Below are positions 5,382 through 56,400 of a DNA stretch of 64,000 nucleotides, piece by piece. The notes beneath the pieces are model-generated. The model saw only the letters and a program-made list of their open reading frames with translations. It had not been told where the DNA came from and made no database searches. Source of the stretch: Mustelus asterias. Taxonomy: Eukaryota. Position numbers and translations under genes: made by a program. The stretch covers positions 17,174,001 to 17,238,000 of the forward strand of contig NC_135808.1 of the NCBI RefSeq assembly GCF_964213995.1. Direction: 5' to 3'. The stretch's first letter is position 1. Each line of letters starts with the position of its first letter.

Positions 5382-5408
5382 TACAAGAATTACTATTAAA
5401 AGATACAG
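5382..5408 (+). CDS. micro-exon A, 27 nt, (V)QELLLKDT
   Basis: ttcattcacag|TACAAG...GATACAG|gtacgt. Confidence 0.85.
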
Positions 5409-8400
5409 GTACGTCAACTGAAATATACGACCCCAGTCTTCCAATAGTTCAAGTGGTGATTTTAATTTTCCTTTTCAATTTTGTGGTTGAGGCCGCAAGG
5501 GGAAAATGGGATTTGAGGCATCACGTTTTTAATGGAGTCAACATCTTGCACTGTGATTAGAAAAAACCTATAGGGTAGACTCCTGACGAAGATTAGGGAA
5601 TGTTGGCTCTGTGATTAAAGATCTGAATGGAAAGCATTTCTTTAATTAGTGCGAAGCGATTCATATTGGAGGATTATAGAAACCAGCATTCCACATGGAT
5701 CAGTTCTTTAAATGCTATTATTCATATCTTAAATGAAGCAGTCGAACTTCGGAATAAGTAACGTGATAAAAAGAATTGCAGCTGGTACCAAACTGGCGAT
5801 TAAAGTTAATACTGAAAAGCATTGCAAAATAACGCAAGAAGAGATTAGAAAACTTGTAGCCCTGGCAGCTAAGTAGCTAATGAATTCTGACATAAATTAT
5901 GGTGATCTGATGCAATTCGGTCAGAAAAACAGAAGCATCGCTCACATAATCAAAAACAAGATAAAAGGAGATAGAACAACAAGGGATCCGGACGAAGTGA
6001 AATATCATTAAACTTAGAATCGCAGGCCAGAAAAGTCAATTACAAATGCTAACAATAAAATGGAATTGATTTCTAGTGCATAAATTTCAGGAGTGGATCC
6101 AGATTGTAGAATGTGTAGGATCGAGATCAGGCTATGCTTATAGATCTGTGCACAGATCTGGCCTCCATACTATTGAAAAGGATTTAGAAGCACTGCAGAA
6201 AGTGCGTAAATGATTACTCTGTCACTACCAATACCTAAATATTACAATTACAGAAAATAATTGAAATGATTGGAGATTTTTTTGAGTCTTGCTCGATGTT
6301 GTTGACCATACAAGGGGTTTGACAGGTAGATGTGGAGACTATTTTTCTAATTCTGGGGCGGGGATAAAAATCGCGACCATAAATTTGCTAATACTTTCAG
6401 CTGAGAATTTGTTCTTTTTTGCTGAGGTGAAGGAGAAGGTAAAGCTCTTTAGCAAACGACTTGATTGAGTGAAGCATCACTTTCCAAAGAAATGAGACGA
6501 GCATATGAAAGATAATTAAGTAGAAAGATGTCCTGAAAGGCTAAGACTGCGTAATTGAAATAACAGGAGTCACGGGTGGATTTTAAATATGAGTGCAGGC
6601 TCGTTGAGTTGAATGACTAGTCGAGCTGATGGCACGCCTCTATATTATATATTCTGTTTCATTCCATTGGATTCATAATTGCAGCCACATACAATACTTT
6701 GCAATCAGCATCTGAACAAAGTTGAGACCGCACCTGTACTGTGTGCAGTTTGCGTCTTCTTATCAAAGATACAATGCATTTTCCAGAGAGGGGGTGCAGC
6801 GAAAGTTCACCAGACTGATTCCTGGGAAGACAGGATTGTCGTATTGGGCCAACTGAAACTGAATTCACTTGAATTTAGGAGACTGAGAGAGATCTAATTG
6901 AAACGTATAAAATTCTGACAGGGATGGAAAGATCGGAAGCAGGCCTCTGGCTGGAGGGTCGAGAGCAAGGGATTACAGTATTAGAATACAAGGTAGACCA
7001 TTCAGGATTTAAATGAGGAAACATTTCTTCACTCGGAGGGTGGTGAACCTATGGAATTTTCTACCACAGAAGGTTGTGGAGGCCAAATCACTGAATATAG
7101 TTAAGAAGGAAATAGCTCGATTTCTATACTCTGAAGATGTCAAGGGGTATGAGGAGAGCGCTGATGTGTTGCGTTCGGATGGAAGATCAGCCGTCATCAT
7201 GCTGAATGGTGGAGCAGGCTCAAAGTCCCGAATGGTCTACCCAAGTTCCGTTTGCCTATTTTTCTTCGTAGAAGTTCCAAGGTGGTGCGTTGCAAAGCAA
7301 TGTCCTTTGACCCCAAACTAAGGTCGCATTGCAAATGCACATAAATCAAGAGCCAGGGCAACCTTGACACCGGTGTGAAACGGGGTGAGACTCCTTGGCA
7401 CTTTTGAGCATTTCACTGCATCTGTCACATAGCGAGAACTAATGGGAAATATCGCTCTGCCCATCATGTTCGAGCGGCTAAACTAAAGCGAACTTAGGAG
7501 TTGGATGCAAAGGATCCCAACAGCGTAATTACCATCGTGGCTTCAGATCCCCATTCTGCACTCAGGATTTCCCTTTCATATTCCCAGTGCTGAATGGGCG
7601 TCATATTTCCCGCACAGAAACATAGAACGGGAAATCAAACCATTAAGTGCCAAATATTAAACAAATGACTTGAAAACCTAAAGGTCTGTTCTTGCAGAGA
7701 TATGATCGTGTTCCATCAATGTCCGATTCCAGAATTAGAAAAGTTGACAAAACAAATTGAGGATGCTGGTAAGTCCATTTCTCTTGAAATGTGCTCTGCT
7801 TTAATTACTTAATTATATGAAATATACCAGCATAGACATTGTTCCCATTACCTGTTTACTATTTTTAAGCAAACTGCCCAATGGTTCACTCCCTTCAACT
7901 CAATCCTTCCGTGTCCTCAACAGTAAAATTTCTTGTGCATCAGATTTCTTGGATCAGTTGAAAGCTACTTGACATAAATGCCACTGAACTCCCATCGCTT
8001 ATAGCACATGACTACTAGTAACTACCAACACTTCAATCGCCCTGAACACATTCTTCCATTATTTATATAATAGTGGGTTACCGACTACACTAACTGGACC
8101 TACTAAGCGAGGCAAATGTTATGTAAAAGGATTCTCGCTTTTATTCTAATTATTAATCAACAGACAATATTCTTCTTGAATACTCATTCTTTCTGCACGC
8201 TATACCACTAATTGGGCAAAAAACAACATCACGCATACAATTATTACATTACAATCTGACTTGTATGTCATCCTAACTTCCCCCATCAGTGGGCGTCAGA
8301 TTCCCCTTTCGTCCTGTCTGAAGGTGGATGAGCAAACGCGCGAACCCCAGTAGGAAAACAAACCTATAAATGCTCTCACCTTGCGGTCATAGGACGATAT

Positions 8401-11400
8401 CTATAAAGTGAGAGAATTGTGTACAATTGATGCCATCTAGCTCAGTCATGCCCGTGGGCTACATACTGCCCATTAGGGACCTGAGTGCAGGCCAAGAAAT
8501 ATCTTGTTCACCGTTCTCCACGCGCAGGGTTGCCAGATTCCACTGGTTTCCGGCCGTGTGGTTCGTTCTCCCTACCGATATGACCAATGTGATCAGCAAG
8601 TAAAGAAAGTGCACGTAAAGGAGGTGCACGTGAAGTGAGGTGCGTGTTGATTGCTCACCCTCCGTCCAATCAAAGCTCTAATATTTATTTAGAAAATTTG
8701 AAGTTAATGGTTCCATTAATATATGACTGGATAAGCATTCTCTACCACTCGTTATGAAATGTTTAAGGTGTGGTAAATGTATTCAATCTAATTCATTGGG
8801 ACATTGTTCATGAACATGCCACAGTTCATTGACGTGGAGCAGGGCACTTATGCGGCCACTAATCTAGGTTGCATATCATTGGGCTGAAAGTATAACATTT
8901 CCAGTTTAATCGTTTCGTTGTCCTGATTGACATTGTGGTTGATATGTTCCCATGTTATTGATATCCTTGTTTAAAATATTTTTTGCAGGACTGACTATCA
9001 ATCAGAAGGACAAAGGTAATTAAAACTTGTTTCCAGTAATGAGGTCAACGGTGAACAGTAATCTGGCGGAGGGTTACCTGAACCCACGAGCGGTGTTTGG
9101 CACTTTAAAAGAACACTGTAAGTTTATTGCCCGCGGGGAATATTTCTCGGGGTATTCTTTATAGCTGTCGTAATTCTGGCGAATAGCTGGCGTCAACCAC
9201 ATTCCCAGAGATCCGGGAAACTGAAGAAGTCATTTCTGGTACATTGACATTGACATTGGTCAGTTCTTAAAGCCCGGCAGACACGCCCATGTCCAACCGT
9301 CAATAAAGGGATACTTCACCAACATCGGCAAAGTTGGCCTCCATGCTCTTAGATGTACTAGTGCAAGCCGTGCCTGTGATGTCTTGTTACGAGTAGAAAC
9401 AAAGCGGTACACATGATCAGCTTTATCTTTCACGGTATTGACATGAACATTACAGTCGGGTGGTTCCTCTAACAGAACTTTAAACTGTAATGTCCACGGT
9501 GAACCGTGGTCAACCGTGGTTACAGTCCAACCATGGCCAACAAAGGCGTCAAAAGGTGAGAAAAGAAGCGTAGCGGATAGAAAGTTTCAGGGCAGAGATG
9601 CCAACAGCATAAAAGCAAAGCGAATTCAGGCATTGCCGCTGTAATTAGATGAAAGAGAAGGAAATCTCATAAGGGGGTAGCATGAGGCAAGATCTGATCA
9701 ATGGAGGACGTTACAAACGTAACATAACATTAAGTCAGGTAAACAGAAGGAAAGGTGTTTAACACGATGGGACTCCGGTCATGCAGACTCTATGACAGGC
9801 GGATATTTGTCTGAGCCCATTCGTTGAAGCGGACGATACAATATATTGTTTGGTGGATGGTAAACAAGTAGAGTAGCAAACAGGTTAACGGCCATTATAG
9901 ATTACAGCTAATTTTAGACCGTTTTCTGCAATTTTGGAGGAGAACAAAGAACAATACAGCACAGGAACAGGCCCTTCGGCCCTCCAAGCCCGCGCCGCTC
10001 CCTGGTCCAAACTAGACCATTCTTTTGTATCCCTCCATTCCCATTCCATTCATGTAGCTATCTAGATAAGTCTTAAACGTTCCCAGTGTGTCCGCCTCCA
10101 TCACCTTGCCCGACAGCACATTCCAGGCCCCCACCACCCTCTGTGTAAAATACGTCCTTCTGATATCCGTGTTAAACCTCCCCCCCGGCCCTCACCTTGA
10201 ACCTATAACCCCTCGTGAACGTCACCACCGACCTGGGAAAAAGCTTCCCACCGTTCACCCTATCTATGCCTTTCATAATTTTATACACCTCTATTAGGTC
10301 ACCCCTCATCCTCCGTCTTTCCAGTGAGAACAACCCCAGTTTACCCAATCTCTCCTCATAACTAAGCCCTTCCATACCAGGCAACATCCTGGTGAACCTC
10401 CTCTGCACTCTCGCTAAAGCCTCCACGTCCTTCTGGTAGTGTGGCGACCAGAACTGGGCGCAGTATTCCAAATGCGGCCGAACCAACGTTCTATACAACT
10501 GCAACATCAGACCCCAACTTTTATACTCTATGCCCCGTCCTATAAAGGCAAGCATGTCATATGCCTTCTTCACTACCTTCTCCACCTGTGACGTCACCTT
10601 CAAGGATCTGTGGACTTGCACACACAGGTCCCTCTGCGTATCTACACCCTTTATGGTTCTGCCATTATTCGTATAGCTCCCCCCTACGTTAGTTCTACCA
10701 AAATGCATCACTTCGCATTTATCTGGATTGAACTCCATCTGCCATTTCTTTGCCCAAATTTCCAGCCTATCTATATCCTTCTGTAGCCTCTGACAATGTT
10801 CCTCACTATCTGCAAGTCCAGCCATTTTCGTGTCGTCCGCAAACTTACTGATCACCCCAGTTACACCTTCTTCCAGATCGTTTATATAAATCACAAACAG
10901 CAGAGGTCCCAATACAGAGCCCTGCGGAACACCACTAGTCACAGGCATCCAGCCGGAAAAAGACCCTTCCACTACCACCGTCTGTCTTCTGTGACCAAGC
11001 CAGTTCTCCACCCACCTAGCCACCTCCCCCTTTATCCCATGAGATCCAACCTTTTGCACCAACCTACCATGAGGGACTTTGTCAAACGCTTTACTAAAGT
11101 CCATATAGTCGACATCCACGGCCCTTCCCTCGTCAACCATTCTAGTCACTTCTTCAAAAAACTCCACCAGGTTAGTGAGGCATGACCTCCCTCTCACAAA
11201 ACCATGCTGACTATCGTTAATGAGTTTATTCCTTTCTAAATGCGCATACATCCTATCTCTAAGAATCCTCTCCAACAACTTCTCGGCCACGGACATCAAG
11301 CTCACCAACCTATAATTTCCCGGGTTATCCTTCCCTTCTTAAATAACGGGGCCACATTAGCTATCCTCCAATCCTCTGGGACCTCACCTGTGTCCAGTGA

Positions 11401-14400: not shown

Positions 14401-17400
14401 AACCTATTTGTTATCTCTTCAAAGAACTCTAACAGGTTTGTCAGGCACGACCTCCCCTTACTAAATCCATGCTGACTTGTCTTAATCCGACCCTGCACTT
14501 CCAAGAATTTAGAAATCTCATCCTTAACAGCGATACATCAAGTGTGATAGTCGGAACTCGGGCCAGTTTCGCAGCTTTCATTAATGGCAGGAGCCACACG
14601 TTCTACGCTGTGACTTAATGGAAGTCCTGACACATTTCATTAAGTCCTGCGTCAGGCCTCACCACATATTCGAGCAACTCGGATAACTCGGCATTTGCAC
14701 GTTTTCCCACAACCTACATTTCCTCCTCCTCTTCCTGTACCTCATCCTGCTCTTCCTCCGTGTGCTCTGTCCTAAAGCCTCAGCGCCCTTAGGTCCAGAA
14801 CTCTCCGGTGGATCAAGTTTTTGATTTTGCGGCAGACCACCACGATAAGCGGGATTCTTGAAAGAAAGTACTGCAGGGCTCCATCCGACTGGCCCAGGCA
14901 CCAGAATCACATCGTCAGAGGCCCTAAGATCTGCTCGAAGTTTGTCTGAGTGAGCAGATGGCTTCCGTTGTGTGACATCTGTAACTCTGTCTGATGTTCG
15001 CACAGATGGAGACCAGCGGACATCTATTCAAGAAAGTGTGTCTCCCTCCATTCACTTAGCCGGCTGAATGAACTTGTACATGCAATTATTTGACATTCTT
15101 AATGAGTCAAGCGGGATCTCAGGTTTCACTACCCACCTGCCCTGCTCAAATCCACCAGCATGTGGAGCGGCGTCAGAAAGCCATCTCACCTGCCGACTAT
15201 GCTATTTCCATCCACCAGTTACTAATGCTCCCAACCCCAGTGGGGTTAAAAAATGCAGTTCCCATAACTCAAATATTTAAGCCGAGAATGAAATACAATA
15301 GAATCAATCACAACGAGTCACAGGAAAAGACGAATTCATTGAGAAATAAGTTGTAAAAAAAACTTCATTTGTATTCGAAAGCAAGGGACAATAAATTATT
15401 GTACTCGTTGAGCTGGAACATTATGCAAGAACGGACGAAGGTACTTATAGCAGTGGATTGAGGTAAACGACCTTGCTCAATAAAAATGCATGGCTCAGTT
15501 AAAGGGGGTTGAAGATCATTGCAGAGTGTAGCAAATTCCCATGTTGCACATGGCCTTCTACAGACTCGACAAGCAACTGGGCCGTTTGATCTTCGCATGC
15601 ATTCACTCACTCCACCACCGATGCTCAGTGGCTCCATCTGTCCAATGCACAAGTTCACTTCACTGCAGCAATTCTCCAAACTCCACTCAACATGGTTTAA
15701 AACCGCTACGTGGAAGAAGAAGGTAACAAGCCTCCTGCCACGCCTCATACCGATTTGCCAATATGCCGTTGCTCCTGCACTGCCTTAAGTACCTTCGCTT
15801 TCACCGACGTACTGGAGCTGCCTCCCTGAGATCACCATGGGGTGCCGATAGAACCTGATCTACAGCGGTTCAAGAAAGCTACTCAACACAACCCTTCTCA
15901 AAGGCAATCCAGGGCGGGCACTTCTAGTTGCTTGCCAGTGCGGCTCAAATCCCAAGGGCCAAGTGACGTTTCTGGGTTCATTATACTGATCGAGCTCTGT
16001 GCATGATCCACCAAAATGTAATCTGTAAATAACGAATCGGTAAGGTATTTTACTCATGGAAACATAGGGAAACGATGGAAAACATGACGAAAACATAATA
16101 GCACATGGCAAGTTTGAGAAAGGATATTAACTTTCCGAGTCCAATGTGGCTCCTCTTCAGAACGGGACATCTTCGTTATTGTGGCGCTTTCGTAAGAGCA
16201 TGAGGAATATTTGTCCGTGTTCTAAAGAAGGTTGCAAAGAGGAAGATGAAAAGAATTGAAGTAGTAAACCATGCATTCAAGAGCGGAAGTAGATAGACAT
16301 GGTCTCAAACATTGTCACATATACAAAGATAAAGAAAAGAGATAAAAGAAACCTCCTCACTATATGGAGGCAGTGAGGTGATGCAAGAGTAGTAGGCTGA
16401 TTGACACAGAGAGGAGAACGAAGGGAAGTGTTTCCGAGCTTTACAAAGAATCAGGTGAGAACACATTAAAGCAATACGAGTTACAAAACTATGCATACTA
16501 ATTTCTTCCGTTTTTCCATTTACCCACGACAATGGTATGGAAGGGTTGCCTAATTGATGTTAATGACGATTAACCTGATAATTATAATGATCTGTTACTC
16601 TTGTAGAGATGGAGGATCATAAGAAAACTGATGGTGAGTAATTCTATAATGAGGGATATTTGGATAGAAGGTATTGAGCACTTGTTGTAAGAGCACACTC
16701 CTCTTTTAGATAAGAATGTGTACCAGTAGCCCCAGAACATCGAGCGCTCTTCGACATCTGGTCTTATTTTTACTACGCCTTCCAGGTGCAGTGGTTACTT
16801 TTCTGAACCATTTGTCTAAATTGAAGCCTCTATAATGTCCAATCATATAATAATACTGAAAATGCTGCTATATCTGTTACATGGTATTTTCTTTCTATTT
16901 TAATCAAATGCTTAATTAAAAGTAAGAACTCTTACAACACCAGGTTAAAATCCAAAAGGTTTACCTGGTATCACGAGCTTTCGGAGCACTGCTCTTTCAT
17001 CAGGTGAGTACCTTACCCGCTCAATTGATGGAGCAGCAGCGGTCAGATAACAGATAAACCTGTTGGACTTTAACCTGGTGTTGTGAGACTGTGCCCACCC
17101 CAGTCCAACGCATCTCCACATCTTAATCAAAAGTGACATTTGTTCTCCGTGTGCATTGCTAGCATTATGCTTTGCTTCTCCTTCATTTTACAGACGACAG
17201 AATACAGGAAGCTCGAACAGGTGAATATTCCTTCATTTTTGCTTCATTCGGCGGTCTATTTATCGTTTTCTTTATTTTTATGGAACATGAGAGTCCCTAG
17301 GAAAGTCCTCATTTGATGCCAATCCCTGATTGGGTCTGAACTGAGTAGCTTCCTCGGTTAAAGTCTAATTAAGCGTCAACCACAATGTTGTATGTCTACG

Positions 17401-20400
17401 GTACTTCGCTGGCTTTTTAAACAATTACCAACAATGATTTCAATTACACGTATTAACCAAATTTCAACCCATGTCAGCTGCCACGGGCAAACAGTGTTGT
17501 AGTATTGTCACTACACTAATAATCCAGAGACCGACGGCAAGACTTGGAGACCCGGGTTCAAATCCCACCACGGCAGATACTGAAATTTGAACTCAACAAA
17601 AATTTGTAATTAAAAATCTAATGATGACCATGAAACTATTAAGGAAATCTACCATCCTAATTGGTGTGGCTTACACGTGGCTCCAGATCCACAGCAATGT
17701 GGCTAACATGTAGGGCAGTTCGGGATGGGGAATAAATTCTGGCCCAGCCAGCGATGCCCATTACCCATAAAACATGTTTAAAAATGAATGCGTGTCCACA
17801 GAACATTAGCTTGAACCTTCGTATTACCAGCACAATGGCACTACCGCTCCGCTGCCGAAACCACCGTAAGATGCAGCGTCAAATTGCACTTGCGGTGTGA
17901 TATTTTTTTCAGCTATTTTCTTCAACGTTCGTGCAATTCGGCTTGTGTGGGCCTTGGAGAAGAATATTATGCAGCTTCTCTATCAGCCTTATGAAGTCGC
18001 CTTTAGTATTAAGTAGGAACACTCCCACAGGGGAAGAAAATAAGTTTTAAAAGTTTATTTATTAATGTCACAAGTAGGCGTCCATTAACACTGCAATGAA
18101 GTTACTGTGAAAATTCCCTAGTCGCCACACTCCGCCACCTGCTCGGGTACACTGAGGGAGAATTTAGCATGGCCAATGCACCAACCAACACGTCTTTCGG
18201 ACCTTGGGAGGAAAACGGAGCACCCGGAGGTAACCCACATAGACACGGGGAGAACGTGCAAACTCCACACAGGCAGTGACCCAAGCCGGAAATTGAATCC
18301 CCGGCCCGCAGTGCGAGCCATTGTGCCACCGTAAACAACTGCGAAAAGCAGCTAGAGTGTTGCTGACGACACCACCTGCTTAGTAGCAGCCATTCATCCA
18401 AAAAGAGCAGTCCAGTTGAATAGACATTGGTAACAACTTCCATCTTTTTCTGCAAATGGTACCAGGTGATAATTTACGTTTTCCCGAGATAAGTTCTCCT
18501 TTGGAGGTTCAATTCCAATAACAGCATTCCTGAATCGGCGGCTCTCGCTCGATCGTGCACTGTGACGGCAACCTAGGTTATGCGCTTAATTTTCTGGGGT
18601 AATTATAATCTGATCAATAAGGTTTGCTGGTTAAAAACCGGGGATATTTCTTCTCTTTAGTCTCCAAAGATCTAAAATGTCTCATGATGCTTATGCCTGC
18701 AATAAAAAAGCAACATTCGCTTGTTTACAGAACTCCAGAAATTACAGCAAATTCTTGCGGATGTCGGTAAGCACTGGTGTGCAGTTTAAACGGTCAGGAA
18801 AACATTATATTAAACGCCCTCGTCCGGTTTCACGCAATTGAGTTGTTGAATAAAAGGTATTGAATATTCCTCGATATCAAATTGTTTGCAGTCCTTATAT
18901 ATCGTTGCCAATTGAATTGCCAGTCTGCTCAACCCGTGGTTCAAAAATCAAGAACTGATGATACGTTTGCTGGTAATGGCGCGTGGATTCAGAAGCTAGT
19001 TATTCTTTGGCTATCTTAATCTTTCTGTATTCTCATTATATCATGTCCCCTTGCTTCAAGCATATCACGTTTGACTCGACTGTAAATTCCCTCATGAAGT
19101 TTTCTTCAGTTCCAGTAAAATAATGATCACAACAATATGATATTCATTTCTATAATACAACATGATTGAAAACATTTCGACATTTTATAGGCATAGAGAA
19201 AGGGCTGCTGCTCCAAACACAAACTGTTTGTAGCCAAGTGTAGCTCTTTCACAGGGAGGTCATTGAAAATGTAACGAAGAACCTTTTGTGCAACTTGGAA
19301 TATTTTACAATACATCGAATGGGACAGAGGTAGAAGAGCAGATTTGCAAGAACATTACTGAGAAGTGCATGCGGAATAGAGTAGCCACTATGGCAACTCC
19401 AATACTGAGTTGGGCATTATTTGTACTGACGATTGAGCGGGGGTGAATCGTTGAGTGTATATTCAGGAGAGCATTCTGAATCTGGTTGTTGCTGAACAAG
19501 ACAGGAGTCATTGCTGGATCTCGTCCTGAGAGGTCAAGTGGAGAACGTGGGGGCTATGGAATTCTATTGATAAGGCTTAGGTTACTTTGAAGTAAAACAA
19601 GAACCAATCTCGAAAAAAAACGAAGATTGACTAGAAGACAGCTACTTTCAGTGAACAGGGAAAGATTTTGGCCTGGTAAATTGGAGTCAGGCTGTCAAGC
19701 ACAAAATAAAACAATATTACATGGTTCCGGTGAAGTCGACGTATATTTTCTCAAGAGTAAAGCGAGGACAACCGAAGCCAGATCTCCCTAATGCTGAATA
19801 GATTAGCGGGTAGAATGAAGAAATAAATAGGGAGTATACTAGGTGGCAACTTGTTAATGCAAAGGGGAAAAGGCTGGACATATAAAGTACAGTATCCAGC
19901 GGTACAATAGCAGTTGACTAGCAACTGTCAGGGCAAGGAATCCAGTGTTGTTCTCGATGCAGAATAAGATAAAACGAAAATAACGATAAAAGGGTTGCTG
20001 ATGGACAAATGCGGGACAAAATCAAAGTTAGTTGCAGGAGGCAGAAGAGTTAGTTCAGGTGCTAAATGGTTACTTCATTGCCTAATAATGAAGAATACTT
20101 TTTTCAACTTTACAGTATAAACGACGATGATGTCAGAATGCTCTATGTGATAAAAGTTGAAAGGAGGGAGCACTGAGAAAAAATACACGGTTCAAAGTGA
20201 AGAAAAAGTCGCCCATTTCGGATGGGAAGAATCATAGATTGTTTGGAAAGGATGGGTGAGAAAGATTTTGAACCTCGCCACGTTCTTCCAATCCTCCTTA
20301 GACAGAAGAGTGCAGCCAAACATCTGAGAATTGCAAATGTTATATCTTTGTGTAAAAGTGTGCGGCAGGATGGACCTAGATAATTCAGTTGACGTTTGTT

Positions 20401-41400: not shown

Positions 41401-44400
41401 TGTACGCTATGTTCCGAATAAAGAAGTTTATGGTGCCGTATCGCTTATTTATCATGTCTGAAACTGACCTTCCTTCAATGAACTGTGCACATATACATCG
41501 AGGCGCCTTTGTTCTTTCACCCCGCATCCCCCCTTAGAACCACCCCCCCCCCCAAACACACACACACACACACCCTGTTAGAACTTTACCTTTTATGTTA
41601 TACTGTCTTTCTACTTTCCTCCGAACAAATTGGATAACTTCACATGGCAAACTTCACACCGTACATGTTTCTTTATTGTAATCGGAAAACAAGGTCTGTG
41701 GAATGCACCGGCAGGCTGCTCGGGTACACGGAGGAAGCATTTAGCATGGCCAATGTACCTAACCAGCGGGTCTTCAATATACAACTGGAATTGCTGGTGC
41801 GTGCCACAAATTGCAGACATTCATTCATCATTTTTCTTTGTAACAAGGTCCGTGGAGCGCACAGGCAGTGAAACGCGCGATTATTCCAAAGCGGAACTCA
41901 GTTTTTCATAATTCTTGTCCATTTATAACAGAAAAAACATGTTTTATTTTACTTTTACTGAGCATTTGTTTCTCTTTCTTAATCTCACTTCCTGGCTATC
42001 TCTTGAGTTCATTTCCGTTCATTGATTTGCCACGGAAGTCGCTGTTACAATTCACACTTTCTGTTTCCAGTGATTTCTGCTGAATTATTCTTCAATTGCA
42101 TTGGTTCACAGTTGCTCGGTTACTTGCTTTGTTCACGCAAAGTGTTCCACTTCACAAATGGTTGGGTGAGAGGAACAGTGCAAAAACCTTTCGGAAATGC
42201 ATCGACAGTTTGAACTCTAACGGAAGCTCTCGTCGTTCAGAGCAAAATCGGGCCCAAAACTTTCGTATTTTCCCCTGATCAAGGGAATAAAGTGAAGAAT
42301 GCAGAATGAATAGTAGGCGCGATGGACACGAAGGTCTGAAGAGTATATTGCAGTTTATAACTGGGTTCCAAATGACCTTGCGTTTACTGATTGGTACAGC
42401 GAATAGGATAAACTGTTCTAATTGCTGGTGTAATAATTCATGTGCTATTATAGATATTCAAAAATGAGGTGAAAACATCTAAATTATCCTCCACAATATG
42501 GTATATTGCAGAAAGCAGCGTGAATTAATGAATAAGTTAATTAATTGACCATGCATGTATTTGTCCCAGATGAAACACCATTCATACGAATCTATTCTTA
42601 CCATAAATGTATGAACGTGTATGTAACGATTTGCATGGACATAATGTTTTGAATTATTTTCTTCAGAACTCGAAGAACTTCGAAAAGAAGGCAGTAAGTA
42701 TAACTATCAAAGCATCGAAACCCTCAAAATAAAAAATACTGCGATTTTAGCGTTCACTTCGGGTCGTAGCATAAGGGTAACACAGCAACGGAGAGAAACT
42801 GTGATTCATTGTTTTTCATATTTTCAATATCATTAATAATCTTTTTTCATTATAAGCGTTTTTGCCCATTCAAGTCAAGCTTAGAAATGTAAAATTATAG
42901 AACACACAGTGCTGCGGCTAAGTATGCTTCAGCTTGACCTCGGTGACACTGGATTAAATGAGAATAAATGATTCCCTCAATCACTTGCCATTTGACCAGC
43001 AATGAAAATCCTTCGCTGAGATGATGGATGAGCATTATTGCACAAACAAAGATGGTTCAGTGCATTAATCTGATACTATTTGATGTCTGTATTCAGGCAG
43101 AACGACTGAAGAATGCGGTAAGAGAATTTAATTTAGACTGCATTTGTTAAAAATTCGAATGTCAACATTGGCGCATTCCCCGCTGTTTGACTGAGACAAG
43201 TACTTTCATTGCATTTTTTATTCTTTCAGATAAAGAACTTAGGGAATGCAAAGCAGGCACGTAATTCTACAATGATTCAGCTAAAATGTGATCACACACA
43301 AATTTCACTAATTTGTAGAAAAACAGCAATATGACATTTGTCTCGGGGTGATGTTGAGGCGTTGCCGACAATTATAAGGAAATTTGATTTGATTTGATTT
43401 GATTTATTATTGTCACATGTATTGGTATACAATGTATACAATGTATTGGTATACAATGTATTGATTCTTGTGCGCTATGCAGGCAACGCATACAGTTCAT
43501 AGAGTACATAGAGTACATAGGGGAGAAGAAAAGGAGAGGGTGCAGAATGTACTGTTACAGTCATAGCTCGGGTGTAGAAAAAGATCAACTTGCCTCATTC
43601 AAAGGTCTGACAGCAGCAGGGGAGAAGTTGTTCTTGTGTCGGTTAGTACGTGATCTCAGACTATTGTACCTTTTTCCCAACGAAAAAAGGTGGAAGAAGT
43701 ATGTCCAAGGTGCGTGGGGTCACTGATTGTGCCGGTTGCTTTTCCGAGGCAACAGGACTTGTCCACGGAATCAATGGATGGGAGGCGGATTTGTGTGATG
43801 GACTGGGCTTCGTTCGCAGCCCTTTGTAGTTTCTTGCGGTCTTGGTCGGAGCAGGAACCATAACAAAAGTTTAAAGTGTATTTGTTAGTGTCACAGTCGG
43901 CTTGCATTAACACTGCAATGGAGTTACTGTGAAAATCCCGAGTCGCCAAACACCGGCGTCTGTTCGGATACACTGAGGGATAATTTAGCATGGCCAATGC
44001 ACCTAACCAGCACGTCTTCAACATACAACGACAACTGCTGATGTGTCTCACAAATTGCAGGCATTCATTAATCATAAGCATTCACTTCATCGGTGAGCTT
44101 TGAGGGATGAATTTAGAGATGCACTTTAAAAATATTCCAATTGTTGCATTTCTAAAGCTCTCTTCTGTTTATTAGAGCCTGTTGACGATAAGTACACAAT
44201 TATTAGCAAGTTAATCCATGATAACTTCATGCACACTGGAACACCTAGATAACAAAGACACCTATGTCAGACTCCTATTTATTGACTATGCTCAGCCTTC
44301 AACACCATTATTCCCATGAAACTCATCTCCAAACACAGTGGCCTGGGCCTCGGCACCTCCCTCTGCGACTGGATCCTGAACTTCCAACTCACAGAGCACA

Positions 44401-47400: not shown

Positions 47401-50400
47401 CGCCATTCAATAAGATCATGGCTGATCTTTTCGTGGATTTAGCTCCACTTAGCCGCCTGCTCACCATAACCCTTAATTCCTTAACTGTTCAAAAACGTAT
47501 CTATCCTTGCCTAAAAACCATTCAATGAGGTAGCCTCAACTGCTTCACTGGGCAGGGAATTCCACAGTTTCACAACCCTCTGTGTAAAGAAGTTCCTCCT
47601 CCACTTAGTTCCTTCAAGCGCCAAAGCACGCAGGCAGCTAAGGACAAAAGGCAAATCAGAAAAATCGTGCGGTGCCAACGAAATCAGACATTCCATGCTT
47701 AGCCGCACTATGGATTTCATGCAGCTCTGCAATTAGGTTCCACCAGCGCAGTGGAAACCACAATAAATAACTCCACTCACACAAGATGTGACCACCTTCG
47801 ATTTGGAAGGGGACCGGCAACGATTAAACTGCCTTGCACGGTTGATCAGAGCTCCGTTTCCTCACGTTGATCTGAGCTCCGTAGGCGGCACGGTGGCACA
47901 GTGGTTGGCACTGTTGCCTCACAGCGCCAGGGACCCGAGTTCGATTCCCGGATTGGGTCACTGTCTGTGTGGAGTTTGCATGTTCTCCCCGTCTGTTTCC
48001 TCCGGGTGCTCCGGTTTTTCCCACAGTCCAAAGATGTGCGGGTTAGGTGGATTGGCCATGCTTAATTGCCCCTGAGTGTCAGGGGGATTAGTTATGGCAA
48101 ATGCATAGGGTTATGGGGATAGGGCTTGGGTGGGACCGTGTTTCGTACAGACTCGATGGGCTTAATGGCCTCCTTCTGCACTGTAGGTTTCTATGATTCT
48201 ACGATATGAAGTGGGCTCATGGTTGACAACAAGGTTGATGAGATTAGTGAATTCTTCTATCCTTTCCATCAGCCTTCTGGCGATAAGGCGGAGAAGTGAA
48301 GTTGAGGATTGTCAAATCAGGTCAGTAATGATCCCATTGAATGGCAGAGCAGATGGGATACGACAAATGACCGACTTCTGCGCCTCCGTCGTTTCGTCCT
48401 AATGCTGGGCCAGGGGGTCCAAATATTCCCCAGAGGTCTTGTGCAACTAACCTGTTGGATGAGATGCCTAATCAACTGTGCCACATCTCAGTCCCAGATA
48501 ATGGAACTTATAAATAAAAACTGTACATTGCTGAAGGTCGATGATGAACATGGATGACGATTAATTGGATCTGAAATTAAATCGATTACCATTGGTTGTA
48601 TTTGTCTTTATAGAAACCGAATCTCTGAAAAGAGAGCTAAAGTATGCAAGTAAGGAGAGACAAATTGAGCGGCATGTTTCTTTAAAAGCTGATTGAAGGG
48701 AATGAAATGGAAACGCTTCTGCCTTCTATAAATTATCCCTTACTTCCGTTTTCGCCATGACAATTGTGATCTTCTCACACAATTGAATACTTCCATGTAG
48801 CGTCATGTTACACCCCCATGTCAACGTTATCGATGATTGGGAATGCGAAAAGCTTTCAGCCTCCAATTTCCGTTCACCCTATAAAGCACCGCTCCGAACC
48901 TCAATCCAATTAGGGAGCATGTGCAGAAAAAGCGTTAGCAGCACAATGTCCTCCATCCAATAAAGCTTCGAGTAAAACCATGGGAAAATCATGGTCTGGG
49001 AATTATTTCCCTTCCGTGAATTTACAGTGTGCATTTTCTCCTTCAGCGAGTGTGAAAGGTTATCAACCTTTTTAATCCAAAGTAGCAACGGAATGCAATG
49101 TAAACATAGTTATCGATACTTCATAATTGGCGATGAATATTGAGCATCAGAACATTCTCTCTGGCGGCGGTGTGCCCCGCATGCACAACAGCCATTAATG
49201 GCGATGAATTAAAAAAAACCCAACCGCTGATCTCGGCATTTGCTTCGCACCGCCTCACCTAGAATTATGGTCATTTAAGCCCTTTGGCTTAAACTTCGAA
49301 CGTCTCGGTGGAGGACAAACTCAGGGCTATTGCATATTATTTGATAAACCTGTACGAATGGAAAGCTTCATGGATGAGCCTTGAATGGTATTACGCCATC
49401 AAACTAACTGATCCGAGAGCGGAACTTGTTTCTGACCTTTGCGACTCAATCATCACTCAGTCTCAAAGGGGAGGTAAAATACTGTGACACGTTGCTTTCT
49501 TTCCCAAAAGAGGATGAAATAAAAGCCAAGGCCGAAGGTAGCCCCTTTCAAAATGCTACGCTTTGCGTTAATAATCACGCATAAATTCTCAGTGAATTCT
49601 TGATTGAATTTAAAAGTTGACATGTGCTGTTTATTCACCGAATCGCTATATTGTTTTAGAAAAGGAAAAACATCTCAAAGACGATGGTAAGTATCAAAAC
49701 CAAAAATGACAGTAAAGAGACGGTGAGACTTTCATTGATGCTGAGATGTGTATTTTTCAAATTCACGCGCATGAAGGAGAATTCCAAATGTCCGTGCTTG
49801 CCGGGACAATGCCCATATCAGGGGCAACTCTGGCTTAACATTCCATGCGAGTCTAGACTCTGCTAAAGTCAAACCCTGGGTTTCCTGCCCGACGATTAAT
49901 GTTCAAGTTGTGCGCGCAAACTCTAACCAAATTTGTCCTGCAACTTTTCCATCTCTCCCCCTTCAGGCTCTGACAGAGTAGGGGATGATGCCAGAGAATC
50001 CGAAAATCGCAAATTGTACAGGCTCGCCTGGTTCAAAATGGGTGTATGGATGAAACCAGCAACTGCAAACCAGTGAGTTTAATTTCGGTGGTGGGGAAAC
50101 TGGTGGAAAACAGAACTTGGGACGGAATTAACAGCTACTTGGGGAAAGTACGGATTAATTAAACAAAGCCAACACGAATTTGTTAAATGCAAACTAACTT
50201 GTTTGCGCTTTTAGTGAGGTGAAGGGCCGGGTAAATTAGGGTAATGCAGTCGATGTAGTGCACATGGATTCTTAGTGCTATTTTTATTCAGTACCGCAGG
50301 ATAGACTTGTGAGTAACTTTAAAGCTCATGGAAGAAAACCGATAGAAGCGACATGAGTATGAAATGGAAAGAGAGATAGAAAACAGAGAGTAATGGTAAC

Positions 50401-53400
50401 ACGTTGTTTTCCACACGGAGTGAAAGCTAATAATGGGGTCCCCGAGGGTTCGGTGTTAGGACCCTGTTGCTATTGATTTATTTGAGTTGTCCAGACTTCG
50501 ATGTATAGGAGAAAATTTCAAATTTTGCGCAAGACATGAAACTTAGAAGTAATGCGAACTGCTCTAAGGATCGTTTTAAACTTCAAACTGAATGGATTTG
50601 TTGATGGAATGGACATACGAGTGGCAGGTGAAATTTCTGGCGGACAATTGTGAATTGACGTTCAAGGGGTACTAGGAGCAGAGAGACCAAGGTACATGTG
50701 CACAACTCATTGAAGCTGGGAGGGCAGGTTGTGGGGATGGTTATTAAAGCATCCAAGATACCAGCTGTTGGAGGAGCATGCAGTACCAAGCAAGGAAGTT
50801 ATGAAACTCTACATTCAACATTGGAGTATTGCATCCAGTTCTGGGAACCGCATGTCAGGAAAGGATGCAAAGGCATTAGCGAGTGTGCAGGCAAACTTCG
50901 CGCAAATAGTTCCAGGAATGAAGAACTCCAGATATATAGAAACATTGTTAAAAATATTGTGGCTGCTTTCCTTGTATAAGAGAATAACTGGAGATTCAAT
51001 AGAAGTGTTAAAACTGCTGAGGGGTCTGGGTAGTGTAGCGGGTCCGAAGCTATTCCCATTAGTAGAAGGATATAGCACCAGATTGTGAAGATTGAATGTT
51101 TTGGCAATACAGTGATATTGGGAACCTTCATGCAGCGAGTGGTTACGATGTGGAAAGCATTGCCTGAGAGTGTGGTGGAGGTCGCTTCAATCGTGGCTTT
51201 TGAAATTGATTTGGGCATTTGTTTCAAGATGGACAGTGTTCAGGTCAATAGACAAAAGGCGGGCGAGTGACAATTAGTGAATTGCTGTCGCAGTGACCGA
51301 GCGCTGTATATATATATATATATTCGGATTCAATGATTCTGTGAATAACTTTGCTTTTCTGCATTCCGTAATGTCATAAATTGAAAGGATAATCGGATAT
51401 AATGCTCGGATTTTGAATGCAATGCGTATTCAATTTTTAAGTAGTGAATGAGCATTTTTGTCTGGAATTGACATTAACTTGGACCGCTCGACGTTTGTTC
51501 CGTCCAATCGTTGACCTTAATGCACTTTGTTTCACATTATCAATTTTACAGAGGATCAAATACGTGAGACTCAATTAGGTAAGCTTTTTACCTGCTCACA
51601 ATAGTTCTGTGCTGCATTATGCCGACAGTGTGAGAAACATGTAACTTGTTGTTGAAATTTAGTTCACTTACTGTTTTCGATTTAAGCTTCCTCCAATCAA
51701 TTAGGAGGAATATGATTTCATTGAATTTTAAAATTGATCTTTTTGCATGCGATGACGTTCAGTAAATCCGACAAAATAATTTGTGCCCAGGAGAATTATC
51801 TTTAAATTAGAGCCTAACGTTTCAGACTGCAAAATGTAGCCTAGTTATGAAAGCATACCCGCATTGATATACCAAAGCCTATTGCATTGAATCTTGTGCT
51901 GATCAAATAAAGGTGCAAAAAAGGATACTGATTTAAGTTCTATTTTCTTCATAATAAATGGTGATGGCTGCTGTCAGCTTGATGCAGTGACTCTGCCAGT
52001 CAGCAACCATGAACCCATTTGATTTCATTTAGGACATAGACTCATCGAGGTTTACATCATGGAAACGGGCCCTTCGGCCCAACTTGTCCAAGACGCCCCT
52101 TTTTTTAAACCCCTAAGCTAATCCCAATTGCCTGCAGTTGACCCATATCCCTCTATACACATCTTATCCATGGGCTGAGGGCAACGGAGGCAATTGCCCG
52201 TCCCTTTGGTCAAGTCGAGCAATAACTTGAGCGTGCTGTGATATTTTTACACTTATCGCTTTTGTGCGTTCCGTCTCATGCACATCACATTCAAAGTGAA
52301 ATTTAATTATTTATTGTCACAAGTAGGCTCACATTGAAGTTACTTTGAAAATCACCGAGACGCCACACACCAGCGCCTCTTCAGGTACACTGAGGGAGAA
52401 TTTAGCATGGCCAATGCACCTAACTAGCACGTCTTTCAGACTGTGTGAGGAAACCGGAGCATCTGGAGGAAACCCACACAGACACAGAAAGAACATGTAG
52501 ACTCCACACAGACAGTGACCCAAGCCGAGAATTGAACCCAGGTCCCTGGCACGCTGAGGCAGCAGTGTTAACCACTGTGCCATCACACCGTGCCATGACC
52601 AGAAAGTACTGATGGTCGGAAGGTTGCTTTCCACTTATCTTTTGTTAACGTGGAAGTGATACTTGAAACGAGCAGGAACCAGTTCGAAAATCCACGTGAA
52701 AAACGTCTTCCTGAATATACAGCAAATAAAGAGATAATTAAAAAGACTAAAAAAATGGTTCAGAAACATTAGAAATCTGTAGTAAATGAGACTAACATGA
52801 TGGATAATAACCGAAAATCATAAGAAAACAAAGATATATTGGAACTTGTGAAGCATGGTTGGAGAGAAGTGCTGCCTTCCTGGAGCCATATTTTAAGATT
52901 GAATTACATAGAACATAGAACAGTACAGCACAGAACAGGCCCTTCGGCCCACGATGTTGTGCCGAGCTTTATCTGAAACCAAGATCAAGCTATCCCACTC
53001 CCTATCATCCTGGTGAGCTCCATGTGCCTATCCAATAACCGCTTAAATGTTCCTAAAGTGTCTGACTCCACTATCACTGCAGGCAGTCCATTCCACACCC
53101 CAACCACTCTCTGCGTAAACAACCTACCTCTGATATCCTTCCTGTATCTCCCACCACGAACCCTATAGTTATGCCCCCTCGTAATAGCTCCATCCACCCG
53201 AGGAAATAGTCTTTGAACGTTCACTCTATCTATCCCCTTCATCATTTTATAAACCTCTATTAAGTCTCCCCTCAGCCTCCTCCGCTCCAGAGAGAACAGC
53301 CCTAGCTCCCTCAACCTTTCCTCATAAGACCTGCCCTCCAAACCAGGCAGCATCCTGGTAAATCTCCTCTGCACTTTTTCCAGCGCTTCCACATCCTTCT

Positions 53401-56400
53401 TATAGCGAGGTGACAAGAACTGCACACACTATTCCAAATGTGGTCTCACCAAGGTCCTGTACAGTTGCAGCATAACCCCACGGCTCTTAAACTCCAACCC
53501 CCTGTTAATAAAAGCTAACACACTATAGGCCTTCTTCACAGCTCTATCCACTTGAGTGGCAACCTTTAGAGATCTGTGGATGTGGACCCCAAGATCTCTC
53601 TGTTCCTCCACAGTCTTCAGAACCCTACCTTTGACCCTGTAATCCACATTTAAATTAGTCCTACCAAAATGAATCACCTCACATTTATCAGGGTTAAACT
53701 CCATTTGCCATTTTTCAGCCCAGCTTTGCATCCTATCTATGCCTCTTTGCAGCCTACAACAGCCCTCCACCTCATCCACTACTCCACCAATCTTGGTGTC
53801 ATCAGCAAATTTACTGATCCACCCTTCAGCCCCCTCCTCTAAGCATTAATAAAAATCACAAAGAGCAGAGGACCAAGCACTGATCCCTGCGGCACTCCGC
53901 TAGCAACCTGCCTCCAATCCGAAAATTTTCCATCCACCACCACCCTCTGTCTTCGATCAGACAGCCAGTTACCTATCCAATCGGCCAACTTTCCCTCTAT
54001 CCCACACCTCCTCACTTTCATCATAATAGCATATGGTGAGCAAAATTTGTCTGGTTTAAACTGCAAACCAAAACTGAGAAAATGTGGATACAGTAAGGTG
54101 GAATTAACACAAAATAACCGGAAAATAAACTGAAAGCAGTTGACGGAAAATGGAATATAAGTGTGGTAACGTGGCCCCATTAAGAGATGAGCCTTTGCGG
54201 GCCACGTATCTTCACGTGACCCCGCACGTTAAGAGACGTGCCGGACCCTATGGAACGGAACTTTAGGAAGCCGGGCAAATTGGGAGCAAGCATCTTGGTG
54301 ACTGGAAAGAGTTAAGCTGAAGCCAGGAAGGAGAACAGAGCAGACATGTGCGATGTTCCTGTAAAACCTTTAGAATGTAAGTAGCTATTATAGTTTAATA
54401 AAGTGTGGAGCTGGATCGAGTTGCCTCCAGTTGTTACAATAAGTGCAGAATAAATGGAAAACCTTTGTCACAATAGACTTTTGAAAATCTGCTAGAACAG
54501 GAAGCACGCAGACCCTGATATTCTGGAGTGACATGCAATTGCCTCAGCGAGTGTATCCAAGGCAAAGCGGTTCTTTCAACTGCCATGCAGTCCATTGATG
54601 TAAATGTCATCACCAGAGCGCCATTGCTACAAAGGTAGCATGTGTACCATCTATAACATATAGTACAGCAAGTCAACAAGGCAATATTTCCACAGTGCTT
54701 CCAAAGCCGCAATCTCCACCATCTAAAAGGGCAAAGGAACGTGGGAATATTGCCACCTCCAATTGCCCCTCCAATTTACACGCCATCCCGGCGGGGAAAT
54801 ATATGAGAACTCCTTTGTCGTCGCTGGGTCAAAGGATAAAGAAAGTCCCCCGATAACCACCATTACTTCCTCGAATGAAATTAGGAATGGCCAATACATG
54901 CTGGCCTTACCAGGAACGCTCAAGTCCCATTAAAATATATGTATTTTAAATTTCCTAAGAGGGTCAAGGAGGAATTTTGTCCAATTGCAAAACAATGTCT
55001 CTAAATTCTGCCACCCCTGTGATACTGAACCCCGGGGACATTAATACAAATATTTAAAAATGGCCATTCGTCTCATGGTTTCATGGATCTTCCATTGAAG
55101 TTAGGATGGACGATGGGAATGGGCCGACCTGTTTCAGGTTACTGGATAATAACAATGCAGATTTGCTTCAAAGTAGGACCTTTACAATTGGAGCTCAATC
55201 GTTCAGATGCAAACTACTGAGAAGCAATTTTACCACAGATGACATGAAAAATGTAATCACTCGGAATGAAAATATCTGAAAGCCATCCTCCGAGCGAAGC
55301 ACAGCAGCATTGTGAAAGGCAATTAGATTGCGTGATTGAGAATTCGATGCATTTGTCCAATTTGCTCTCAGGGTGGACAAGTGCTATTGCAGATCGGCGG
55401 TCCTCCTCAATCCTCCGATAATTTGGTGGGTTTTATTCACAAGGGGGCGTCGAAATTAGATTTTAAAACAATGGCAACTCTCAAGTAACAATGTATAACT
55501 GATTCTCTCACACAATAAATGGAATTATCGATTGTAGAGGCATTTGTGCTGTTTAAGGAAACGTCATCAGGTTTGCAGAAATTTATTTTGCAAATATAAT
55601 TTTGCCAGAACGTCAGAAAATAGAAGCCATTCGTAAGAATGTCGGTAAGACCACTCAACTTCACTTATGTGTGTGCAGAATTTCCAAATCTGGGACCCAA
55701 AGGAATCATGGAGTATTGTCAGTCTCCACACCGTCTCACCAACACCGTCCCTCCCTATCCCATTCTCCACCCACCAACCCCTTATCAATTCAGAGAAAGG
55801 CATATGAACAGCACTTTACTCTGCTCCTCCCAGATTGTTGCCAATCTTCTCTGGCATCAAAGGGAAAGAGAGGAAGACCCACAGGGAAATTCCACGCCCA
55901 AAGTTCCAATAGGTAATAAATCACTCAAGAGAGCTGCCTAAGGAAGGAAGATTTACACTGGTCTCAAAAGACAATCTATATCTCCGTGAAAAGTGTAAGA
56001 CTGCGAGTTCTCTGACCCAACATCAACATTCCAGTCATATTCCAGAGTTAGCAGTTCAATGATAGATTTTGGGAACTGAATCTCCAGGGCTGCGAGAGTG
56101 GGCATGATTTCAGCTTTACAAATGCAAACAGGAATAGCGTTTCCTCAGACCAGGACATAAAAAAGACCCATGTGCATGTGCTACTTTCATTTCTGTGCAG
56201 TTCCCACAGCATTTCAACCTACACCTCGCTTACCCCATTCTGCTTATCATTGGCTACACAGAACGGCATGATATAGCGCCGTGATGTTTCTGAATCCATT
56301 GCTCTAACTTACGTCTTTTCATTTTGCAGAGGATTTACTGAAAGGGCAGGATGCAGGTACAATAAATATGAGGTGGGGCATGAGCAGGGACCAAAAAGAA

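Follow-up and report, generated by a model that had tools for sequence, protein, structure and literature searches.

The chicken BG genes spell out a long predicted coiled coil in many short exons whose junction codons are split; exon number differs between genes and the true heptad straddles the exon borders (PMC5938342, PMC4046983; parts of both papers). BG exons are mostly 21 nucleotides (nt) long, number 13-38 per gene, and lie behind IgV and transmembrane exons in genes without a B30.2 domain. Butyrophilins such as BTN3A and BTN2A likewise place short heptad exons right before their B30.2 exon (PMC6790196, in part), and in TRIM PRY/SPRY proteins such as TRIM21 and TRIM7 a coiled coil precedes B30.2. 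Here we describe a micro-exon array in a 64,000-nt stretch of the Mustelus asterias genome, positions 17174001-17238000 of contig NC_135808.1 (C8 below); this whole stretch is referred to as the window. The exons alternate between a head and a tail class, and we consider it likely that this head/tail grammar builds a segmented rod. The 63-nt sum of a 36-nt and a 27-nt exon, which the original prediction from this DNA took as the unit, would then be one outcome of the grammar and not a co-regulated splicing cassette. Butyrophilins have been reported in cartilaginous fishes, and the part of PMC12841164 available to us says nothing on such arrays; no published account of this family or of a 27/36-nt code turned up in the literature searched, which included few subscription journals, and a parallel with 21-residue exon units of tropomyosin found no confirmation there.

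The window DNA is of vertebrate type and rich in repeats. We scanned it for short AG...GT segments open in phase 1, using approximate splice-site weights of our own making. Candidates of 27 or 36 nt favored the plus strand, with 15 plus versus 2 minus at one scan setting and 18 versus 1 at another. Twenty-five symmetric phase-1 micro-exons form one open frame, and all 25 chain without gaps onto residues 379-619 of the catshark (Scyliorhinus canicula) protein XP_038671249.1, a SPRY-carrying protein of 945 amino acids (aa), with 170 of 241 residues identical. The chain extends by two exons upstream and eleven downstream to give 38 consecutive gap-free exons (263/365 residues identical), across which the catshark and window genes differ by no exon gain or loss. 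The chain ends outside this block hold spurious fill-ins, and statistics were restricted to the 38 exons. Within the window, 13 of the 25 exons are 27 nt long, seven are 36 nt and two, both linker-like, are 21 nt. The homolog-supported chain bears out the prediction that six of the seven 36-nt exons are directly followed by a 27-nt exon, confirming the observation of paired micro-exons; the sole exception, exon L at 32658, is followed by a 24-nt exon. The two exons with GC donors (Table 1) are both gap-free against the homolog. A 24-nt reading of the exon at 42667 with a GC donor was dropped, as it leaves a homolog gap that the 27-nt GT reading closes, and candidates at 39608, 40574, 25220 and 59060 were rejected for want of room in the gap-free chain.

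The exons can be sorted by where their core residues fall. Head exons carry core residues at positions 2 and 5 and are 36, 27 or 24 nt long; tail exons are 27 nt long, with a core residue at position 4 and Lys at position 7; a third, linker class measures 21 or 24 nt. Head and tail alternate, with one same-class neighbor in 37 junctions (reached in 0 of 200,000 shuffles), and in the 38-exon block nine of ten 36-nt exons precede a tail-class 27-nt exon (p 2e-4). Because the classes were set after the sequences had been viewed, these class-based p values are post hoc and optimistic. Spacing between core positions across the 28 linker-free junctions was 7 residues in 14 cases, 14 in nine, 11 in four and 10 in one. 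Coiled coils tolerate insertions of 4 residues (stutter) and 3 residues (stammer), those of 1 and 5 are more demanding, and those of 2 and 6 are the most strained (PMC4786415, in part). None of the 28 hinge-free junctions had a strained spacing (+1, +2, +5 or +6). A 36-nt and a 27-nt exon add up to 21 residues in either order, and two 27-nt exons to 18.

These data suggest a mechanism. A tail-to-head junction always spaces the core by 7. A 36-nt head gives a spacing of 14, predicted to be pure heptads, which is the pair of the original prediction; a 27-nt head of the type described below, with a core His, gives 11 and would introduce a single stutter, one hendecad per block; and the 21/24-nt exons would close a rod segment as hinges. 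The array probably grew by tandem duplication of both multi-exon blocks and single exons, selection probably retaining the combinations with the tolerated spacings 7, 14, 11 and 10. The 27-nt His-type heads at 16607-16633, 49660-49686 and window +79652 carry a core His followed by acidic residues, also in homologs; we can only guess that this core site is pH- or metal-sensitive.

The register of the pairs was examined in nine pairs from each of two species. An aliphatic residue occupies position 16 in 18/18 cases and position 5 in 17/18, and Lys occurs at position 19 in 15/18; the aliphatic fractions at positions 2, 5, 9, 12 and 16 are 0.56, 0.94, 0.67, 0.56 and 1.0, with 0.44 at positions 8 and 15. 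The predicted heptad spacing in exon pair F-G was recovered, except that residue 9, given as Ile, is Leu, the Ile being residue 8, which leaves the register unchanged. In an exon-blind register model the best phase starts at g in seven of nine pairs in both species, including B-C, F-G, J-K and S-T of the window, and N-O and V-W score best in phase d. Register is tied to the exons, and the claim that a pair equals exactly three heptads thus appears right for most pairs (four of six in the window, seven of nine with the flanks) and is doubtful for N-O and V-W. At all penalties tried, the model placed a 3-position skip at or beside two of the three His-type exons; the third received one at the lowest penalty alone. 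Over four segments in both species the hydrophobic period was 3.46-3.52, close to the value of about 3.5 expected for heptad a/d positions. Lys and polar residues at core positions, together with a sub-threshold match of XP_038671249.1 to PKcGMP_CC (expect value, E, 0.0017), suggest a dimer, most likely parallel. An AlphaFold2 monomer model of this catshark homolog is nearly all helix; the helices are interrupted at residues 455-461, 499-503 and 607-610, which coincide with the hinge exons at 25892 and 34473 and with the junction between exon W and the 30-nt exon (56330/61726). XP_038671249.1 gave no match to TRIM_CC at E up to 1. In the ESM Atlas the best feature score was 0.78, below the bar, with structure matches at a TM-score of 0.32 or less.

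How far the pairing exceeds chance depends on whether exon class is considered. By length shuffling alone, the excess of 36-then-27 neighbors in the window has a p of 0.046, or 0.24 when 36-36 neighbors are barred; in the 38-exon block, where nine of ten 36-nt exons are followed by 27 nt, the values are 0.011 and 0.13. The length-only p values are weak because 13 of the 25 window exons are already 27 nt long. The reverse order, 27-then-36, which also makes 63 nt, occurs in 5/7 cases in the window and 7/10 in the block, and both orders occur in 20/28 cases in a noisier exon list for the whole gene. The longest collinear repeat is a six-exon block of 36-27-27-27-36-27 nt with three copies: one spans 7733-21657, one spans 48614-56356, and the third lies some 11-23 kb beyond the window end. 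Four of the six window pairs descend from the two pairs of this block; because of this common descent the pairs are not independent. The lettering of the original prediction, counted from A at 5382, apparently passes over one of the 27-nt exons at 49660 and 51552. Both the weak length-only p values and the dependence among pairs would be expected if the array were a neutral by-product of one duplicated 27-nt ancestor, its rod tolerating any register break and its 63-nt sum a frozen coincidence. An upstream run of thirteen near-identical 27-nt exons (see below), incompatible with heptad register, points the same way. The neutral account conflicts with the lack of any strained spacing at the hinge-free junctions and with the unchanged exon set over 38 exons in the catshark, and we regard it as highly improbable.

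We also examined what exon skipping would do to the rod. Loss of a 36-nt exon (12 residues) shifts the register by +2 modulo 7 and loss of a 27-nt exon (9 residues) by +5. Stammers correspond to +3 and stutters to +4; for this reason the expectation that skipping one exon would add a stutter or stammer understates the damage. Isoforms were compared in 17 predicted RefSeq models from three homolog loci of other species (9 + 3 + 5); five isoforms differing only at one end were set aside, and the ends of the Narcine models are doubtful. The eight distinct internal deletions measure 8, 8, 11, 12, 23, 9, 6 and 9 aa, and none of the eight is 21 aa or any other multiple of 7. In the 12-aa deletion, seen in predicted Narcine isoform X5, the counterpart of exon N is gone and that of O is kept. 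This skip need not break the register because the exon is preceded by a linker, and since it adjoins a hinge it is no test of an internal register break. The 11-aa deletion falls inside a segment and likewise removes a head exon while its partner is kept. In these predicted isoforms of other species skipping thus appears independent of pairing, and the data at present lend no support to coordinated 36+27 skipping.

The pair could nevertheless be a structural, evolutionary and splicing module whose coordinated skipping tunes rod length. The frequent succession of 36-nt and tail-class exons (post hoc as it is), the g-to-f span repeated exactly three times in seven of nine pairs by best phase, and a Narcine homolog with a 12+9-residue stretch where the sharks have a single 10-residue exon are consistent with such a module. 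The isoforms argue against it, with no 21-aa deletion and with both head-exon removals sparing the partner, and so do the duplications: the longest collinear repeats comprise six exons, and in the sister genes single exons of 27 and of 33 nt are repeated in tandem. The introns within pairs show no significant shortening relative to the others (median 861 versus 1998 nt, p 0.25). We judge a pair module to be unlikely; the pair is half of the head/tail alternation, and the best-supported duplicated unit is the six-exon block.

Several results weigh against the head/tail grammar. The register model uses our own hand-set weights and is neither Marcoil nor DeepCoil; its full Viterbi path keeps three heptads in just five to six of the nine pairs, and it puts discontinuities inside N-O and V-W. 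The first 27+27 junction, upstream of 5382, has a spacing of 11 by the anchor residues and reads as plain heptads in the exon-blind model. The Narcine model lacks the His-type exon D, and a strained 9-residue spacing would result. The AlphaFold2 model is of low confidence (mean predicted local distance difference test score 57.9, predicted TM-score 0.20, five sequences, SPRY part unfolded) and has no break at two of the four in-rod linker-like exons (43097 and window +73859). Splicing was deduced from homolog gene models, not from transcripts of this genome; no RNA data set was listed as containing the B30.2 exon, and one sequencing run, guessed to be RNA and from another organism, yielded a 265-nt stretch from within the B30.2 exon and none of five micro-exons, which is no evidence either way. 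A DNA run covers both stretches almost identically and may be where the window sequence comes from. Finally, the gene's 5' end is unverified and might include a membrane anchor.

Micro-exons stretch from around C8:16.86-16.88 Mb as far as 17.29 Mb. Trained on the 38 exons, a model found 101 candidates on the plus strand versus 5 on the minus strand at one threshold; with homolog- and paralog-supported exons added, the list holds 127 candidates totaling 3564 nt, some of them false and some exons missed. The gene spans about 430 kb with roughly 100-125 micro-exons, and the window is its middle. The array ends in an intact phase-1 B30.2/SPRY exon at C8:17297768-17298288 that passes the cut-off of the Pfam SPRY model (E 9e-10) and gives no match to the PRY model. 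Its best relatives of solved structure are BTN3A1 (E 1e-17) and TRIM21, with BTN3A ahead by a small margin, and the closest other B30.2 in the genome is 35% identical. Most of 150 scored SPRY matches in the genome lie on the same arm, at C8:0.7-32 Mb.

The nature of the protein depends on what lies 5' of the array. Among 134 plus-strand frames of at least 75 aa at C8:16.804-16.894 Mb (frames at 10-kb borders being truncated) none encodes Ig, RING or B-box, and the same interval contains no strongly hydrophobic exon candidate. Seven elasmobranch homolog models have SPRY only, with no Ig, RING or B-box, and may be truncated at their 5' ends. The only RING found is a separate frame 85 kb downstream of the array. 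A putative start exon at C8:16847101 (L082:1101-1232) has strong splice sites, contains an ATG along with a Tyr-x-Asn motif and ends in phase 1; no counterpart of it was found in the upstream copy described below. The RING frame 85 kb downstream, at C8:17383208 (L039:5208-5885), serves as a synteny marker; it encodes a RING finger protein in a single frame, and the C-terminal part has a hydrophobic stretch.

The array could instead be the cytoplasmic tail of a membrane-anchored butyrophilin- or BG-like receptor, with Ig and transmembrane exons further 5' and possibly with both arrays in one transcript that skips a broken B30.2. The nearness of the B30.2 exon to BTN3A, slight as the margin over TRIM21 is, is in keeping with a receptor, as is the butyrophilin layout of short heptad exons between transmembrane segment and B30.2 (PMC6790196, PMC4046983, each in part); moreover, the micro-exons can be followed upstream at least as far as C8:16.157 Mb with no 5' end reached. 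Against this stand the frames at C8:16.804-16.894 Mb free of Ig, RING and B-box, the lack of a strongly hydrophobic exon there, the ATG-bearing phase-1 exon and the SPRY-only homolog models, possibly 5'-truncated as they are. A receptor tail is improbable in our estimate. On the head/tail reading, the rod is more likely a cytosolic parallel dimer carrying two C-terminal B30.2/SPRY binding domains; it would serve them as a long spacer or scaffold and would itself have neither a ligase domain nor a membrane anchor. An origin from a short phase-1 exon like those that precede the butyrophilin B30.2 is plausible (PMC6790196, in part).

A tandem sister array lies upstream at C8:16.157-16.813 Mb and is collinear with the 5' two thirds of the window gene over some 70 exons. 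It lacks the exons after G, and its B30.2 copy aligns in three frames; it may be a separate gene, a pseudogene or part of one giant transcript. In 67 exon pairs compared between the copies, substitutions affect 153/568 third codon positions, 106/568 first and 99/568 second positions. Thirteen near-identical 27-nt exon candidates stand in a row at C8:16156965-16200247, and their 9-residue repeat cannot hold heptad register. A third family gene, at C8:14.346-14.457 Mb, matches S. canicula XP_038672306 and has seven related 33-nt exons (11 residues, hendecad length) in tandem at C8:14.37-14.41 Mb. A LINE-like (long interspersed element) sequence of about 2.2 kb, 98-100% identical, occurs at non-matching positions in the two sister genes (L011:1869-4052, L045:6146-8329) and appears to be a recent insertion pair.

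Relatives in elasmobranch RefSeq include XP_038671249.1, XP_072329362.1, XP_069775418-28, XP_038672306-10, XP_069775384-90, XP_078422387.1, XP_060706632.1 and XP_043533989.1. Each is either a direct ortholog or a member of the family that shares the rod motifs and/or the B30.2 subtype; their names were assigned automatically (A33-like, golgin-like, trichohyalin-like, TRIM39-like, BTN-like), and they look fragmentary, the catshark model covering no more than the 3' portion of the present array. Close homologs were only sharks and rays among the records named (10 of the 150 matches of one search were looked up), and teleost and sturgeon matches show generic SPRY or coiled-coil similarity. A bolder proposal would be an elasmobranch-only exon code, in which the tail is fixed at 27 nt and the head, by its length, specifies a heptad (36 nt), a hendecad (27 nt) or a hinge. 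Regulated splicing of more than 100 micro-exons would tune how long and how twisted the B30.2-tipped immune rod is, and the two tandem arrays may form one transcript of more than 1.1 Mb with more than 200 micro-exons. Taken jointly, we hold these ideas to be speculative and probably wrong as a whole.

The exons of the window are listed in Table 1. Two structures were noted in its introns, both probably derived from mobile elements: nested inverted repeats around a 1-kb insert (window 43523-45281) and a palindrome without spacer and with 77-nt arms (window 58423-58576).

Table 1. Micro-exons of the window. Positions are those of the window.
Feature	Position	Strand	Evidence
27-nt tail exon; residue 4 is core a, Lys at residue 7 is d	5382..5408	+	scan, homolog chain, class analysis
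36-nt head exon B, opens copy 1 of the six-exon block	7733..7768	+	scan, homolog chain, block repeat
27-nt tail exon C	8989..9015	+	scan, homolog chain
27-nt His-type head exon; 11-residue core spacing with next exon (predicted stutter)	16607..16633	+	homolog chain, register model, class analysis
27-nt tail exon	17194..17220	+	scan, homolog chain
36-nt head exon F	18731..18766	+	scan, homolog chain
27-nt tail exon G, last of block copy 1	21631..21657	+	scan, homolog chain, block repeat
24-nt head exon, ends rod segment	23586..23609	+	scan, homolog chain
21-nt Pro/Gly hinge exon; helix break in homolog model	25892..25912	+	homolog chain, AlphaFold2 model
36-nt head exon J	30655..30690	+	scan, homolog chain
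27-nt tail exon K	31515..31541	+	scan, homolog chain
36-nt head exon L, not before 27 nt	32658..32693	+	scan, homolog chain
24-nt hinge exon; helix break in homolog model	34473..34496	+	homolog chain, AlphaFold2 model
36-nt head exon N; counterpart dropped alone in predicted Narcine isoform X5	37894..37929	+	homolog chain, isoforms
27-nt tail exon O, GC donor	38116..38142	+	scan, homolog chain
27-nt head exon, GT donor	42667..42693	+	scan, homolog chain
21-nt linker-like exon, no helix break in model	43097..43117	+	homolog chain, AlphaFold2 model
27-nt tail exon, GC donor	43230..43256	+	scan, homolog chain
36-nt head exon S, first of block copy 2	48614..48649	+	scan, homolog chain, block repeat
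27-nt tail exon T	49511..49537	+	scan, homolog chain
27-nt His-type head exon, predicted stutter with next exon	49660..49686	+	homolog chain, class analysis
27-nt tail exon	51552..51578	+	scan, homolog chain
36-nt head exon V	55609..55644	+	scan, homolog chain
27-nt tail exon W, last of block copy 2	56330..56356	+	scan, homolog chain, block repeat
30-nt tail-type exon, spaced 10 residues from W; model has a helix break at the W junction	61726..61755	+	homolog chain, class analysis, AlphaFold2 model

Compared with these known systems, the locus differs from each in part. From the BG genes it is set apart by two alternating classes of 27 and 36 nt, some 100-125 exons, predicted stutters and hinges, and a terminal B30.2. 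The one-heptad 21-nt exon that predominates in BG accounts for just two of the 25 window exons, and the intact SPRY exon closes a gene of a kind that in BG has none. As far back as the upstream B30.2 copy, no signal peptide, IgV or transmembrane exons were found, the 5' end being without an RNA check. As in butyrophilins, there is a C-terminal B30.2 preceded by short heptad exons, yet about 100 of these instead of a few; the IgV, IgC and transmembrane segments that butyrophilins have in addition were not found here. The order of coiled coil and B30.2 is shared with the TRIM proteins and with a shark TRIM-like cluster on the same arm, and the gene sits among many SPRY exons of C8, whereas no RING or B-box was found upstream on the plus strand or in the homolog models. 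Whether the gene belongs with butyrophilins or TRIM turns on its 5' end. The current annotations split this 430-kb gene and its two sister genes into misleadingly named fragments. The exon lengths of this family correspond to periodicities known from coiled coils (7, 11 and 10), raising the testable general question of whether register constrains exon gain, loss and skipping. The array is the heptad-exon design of BG and butyrophilins in a new form, in which the idea of a coiled coil spelled out in tiny exons is extended to a two-class code.

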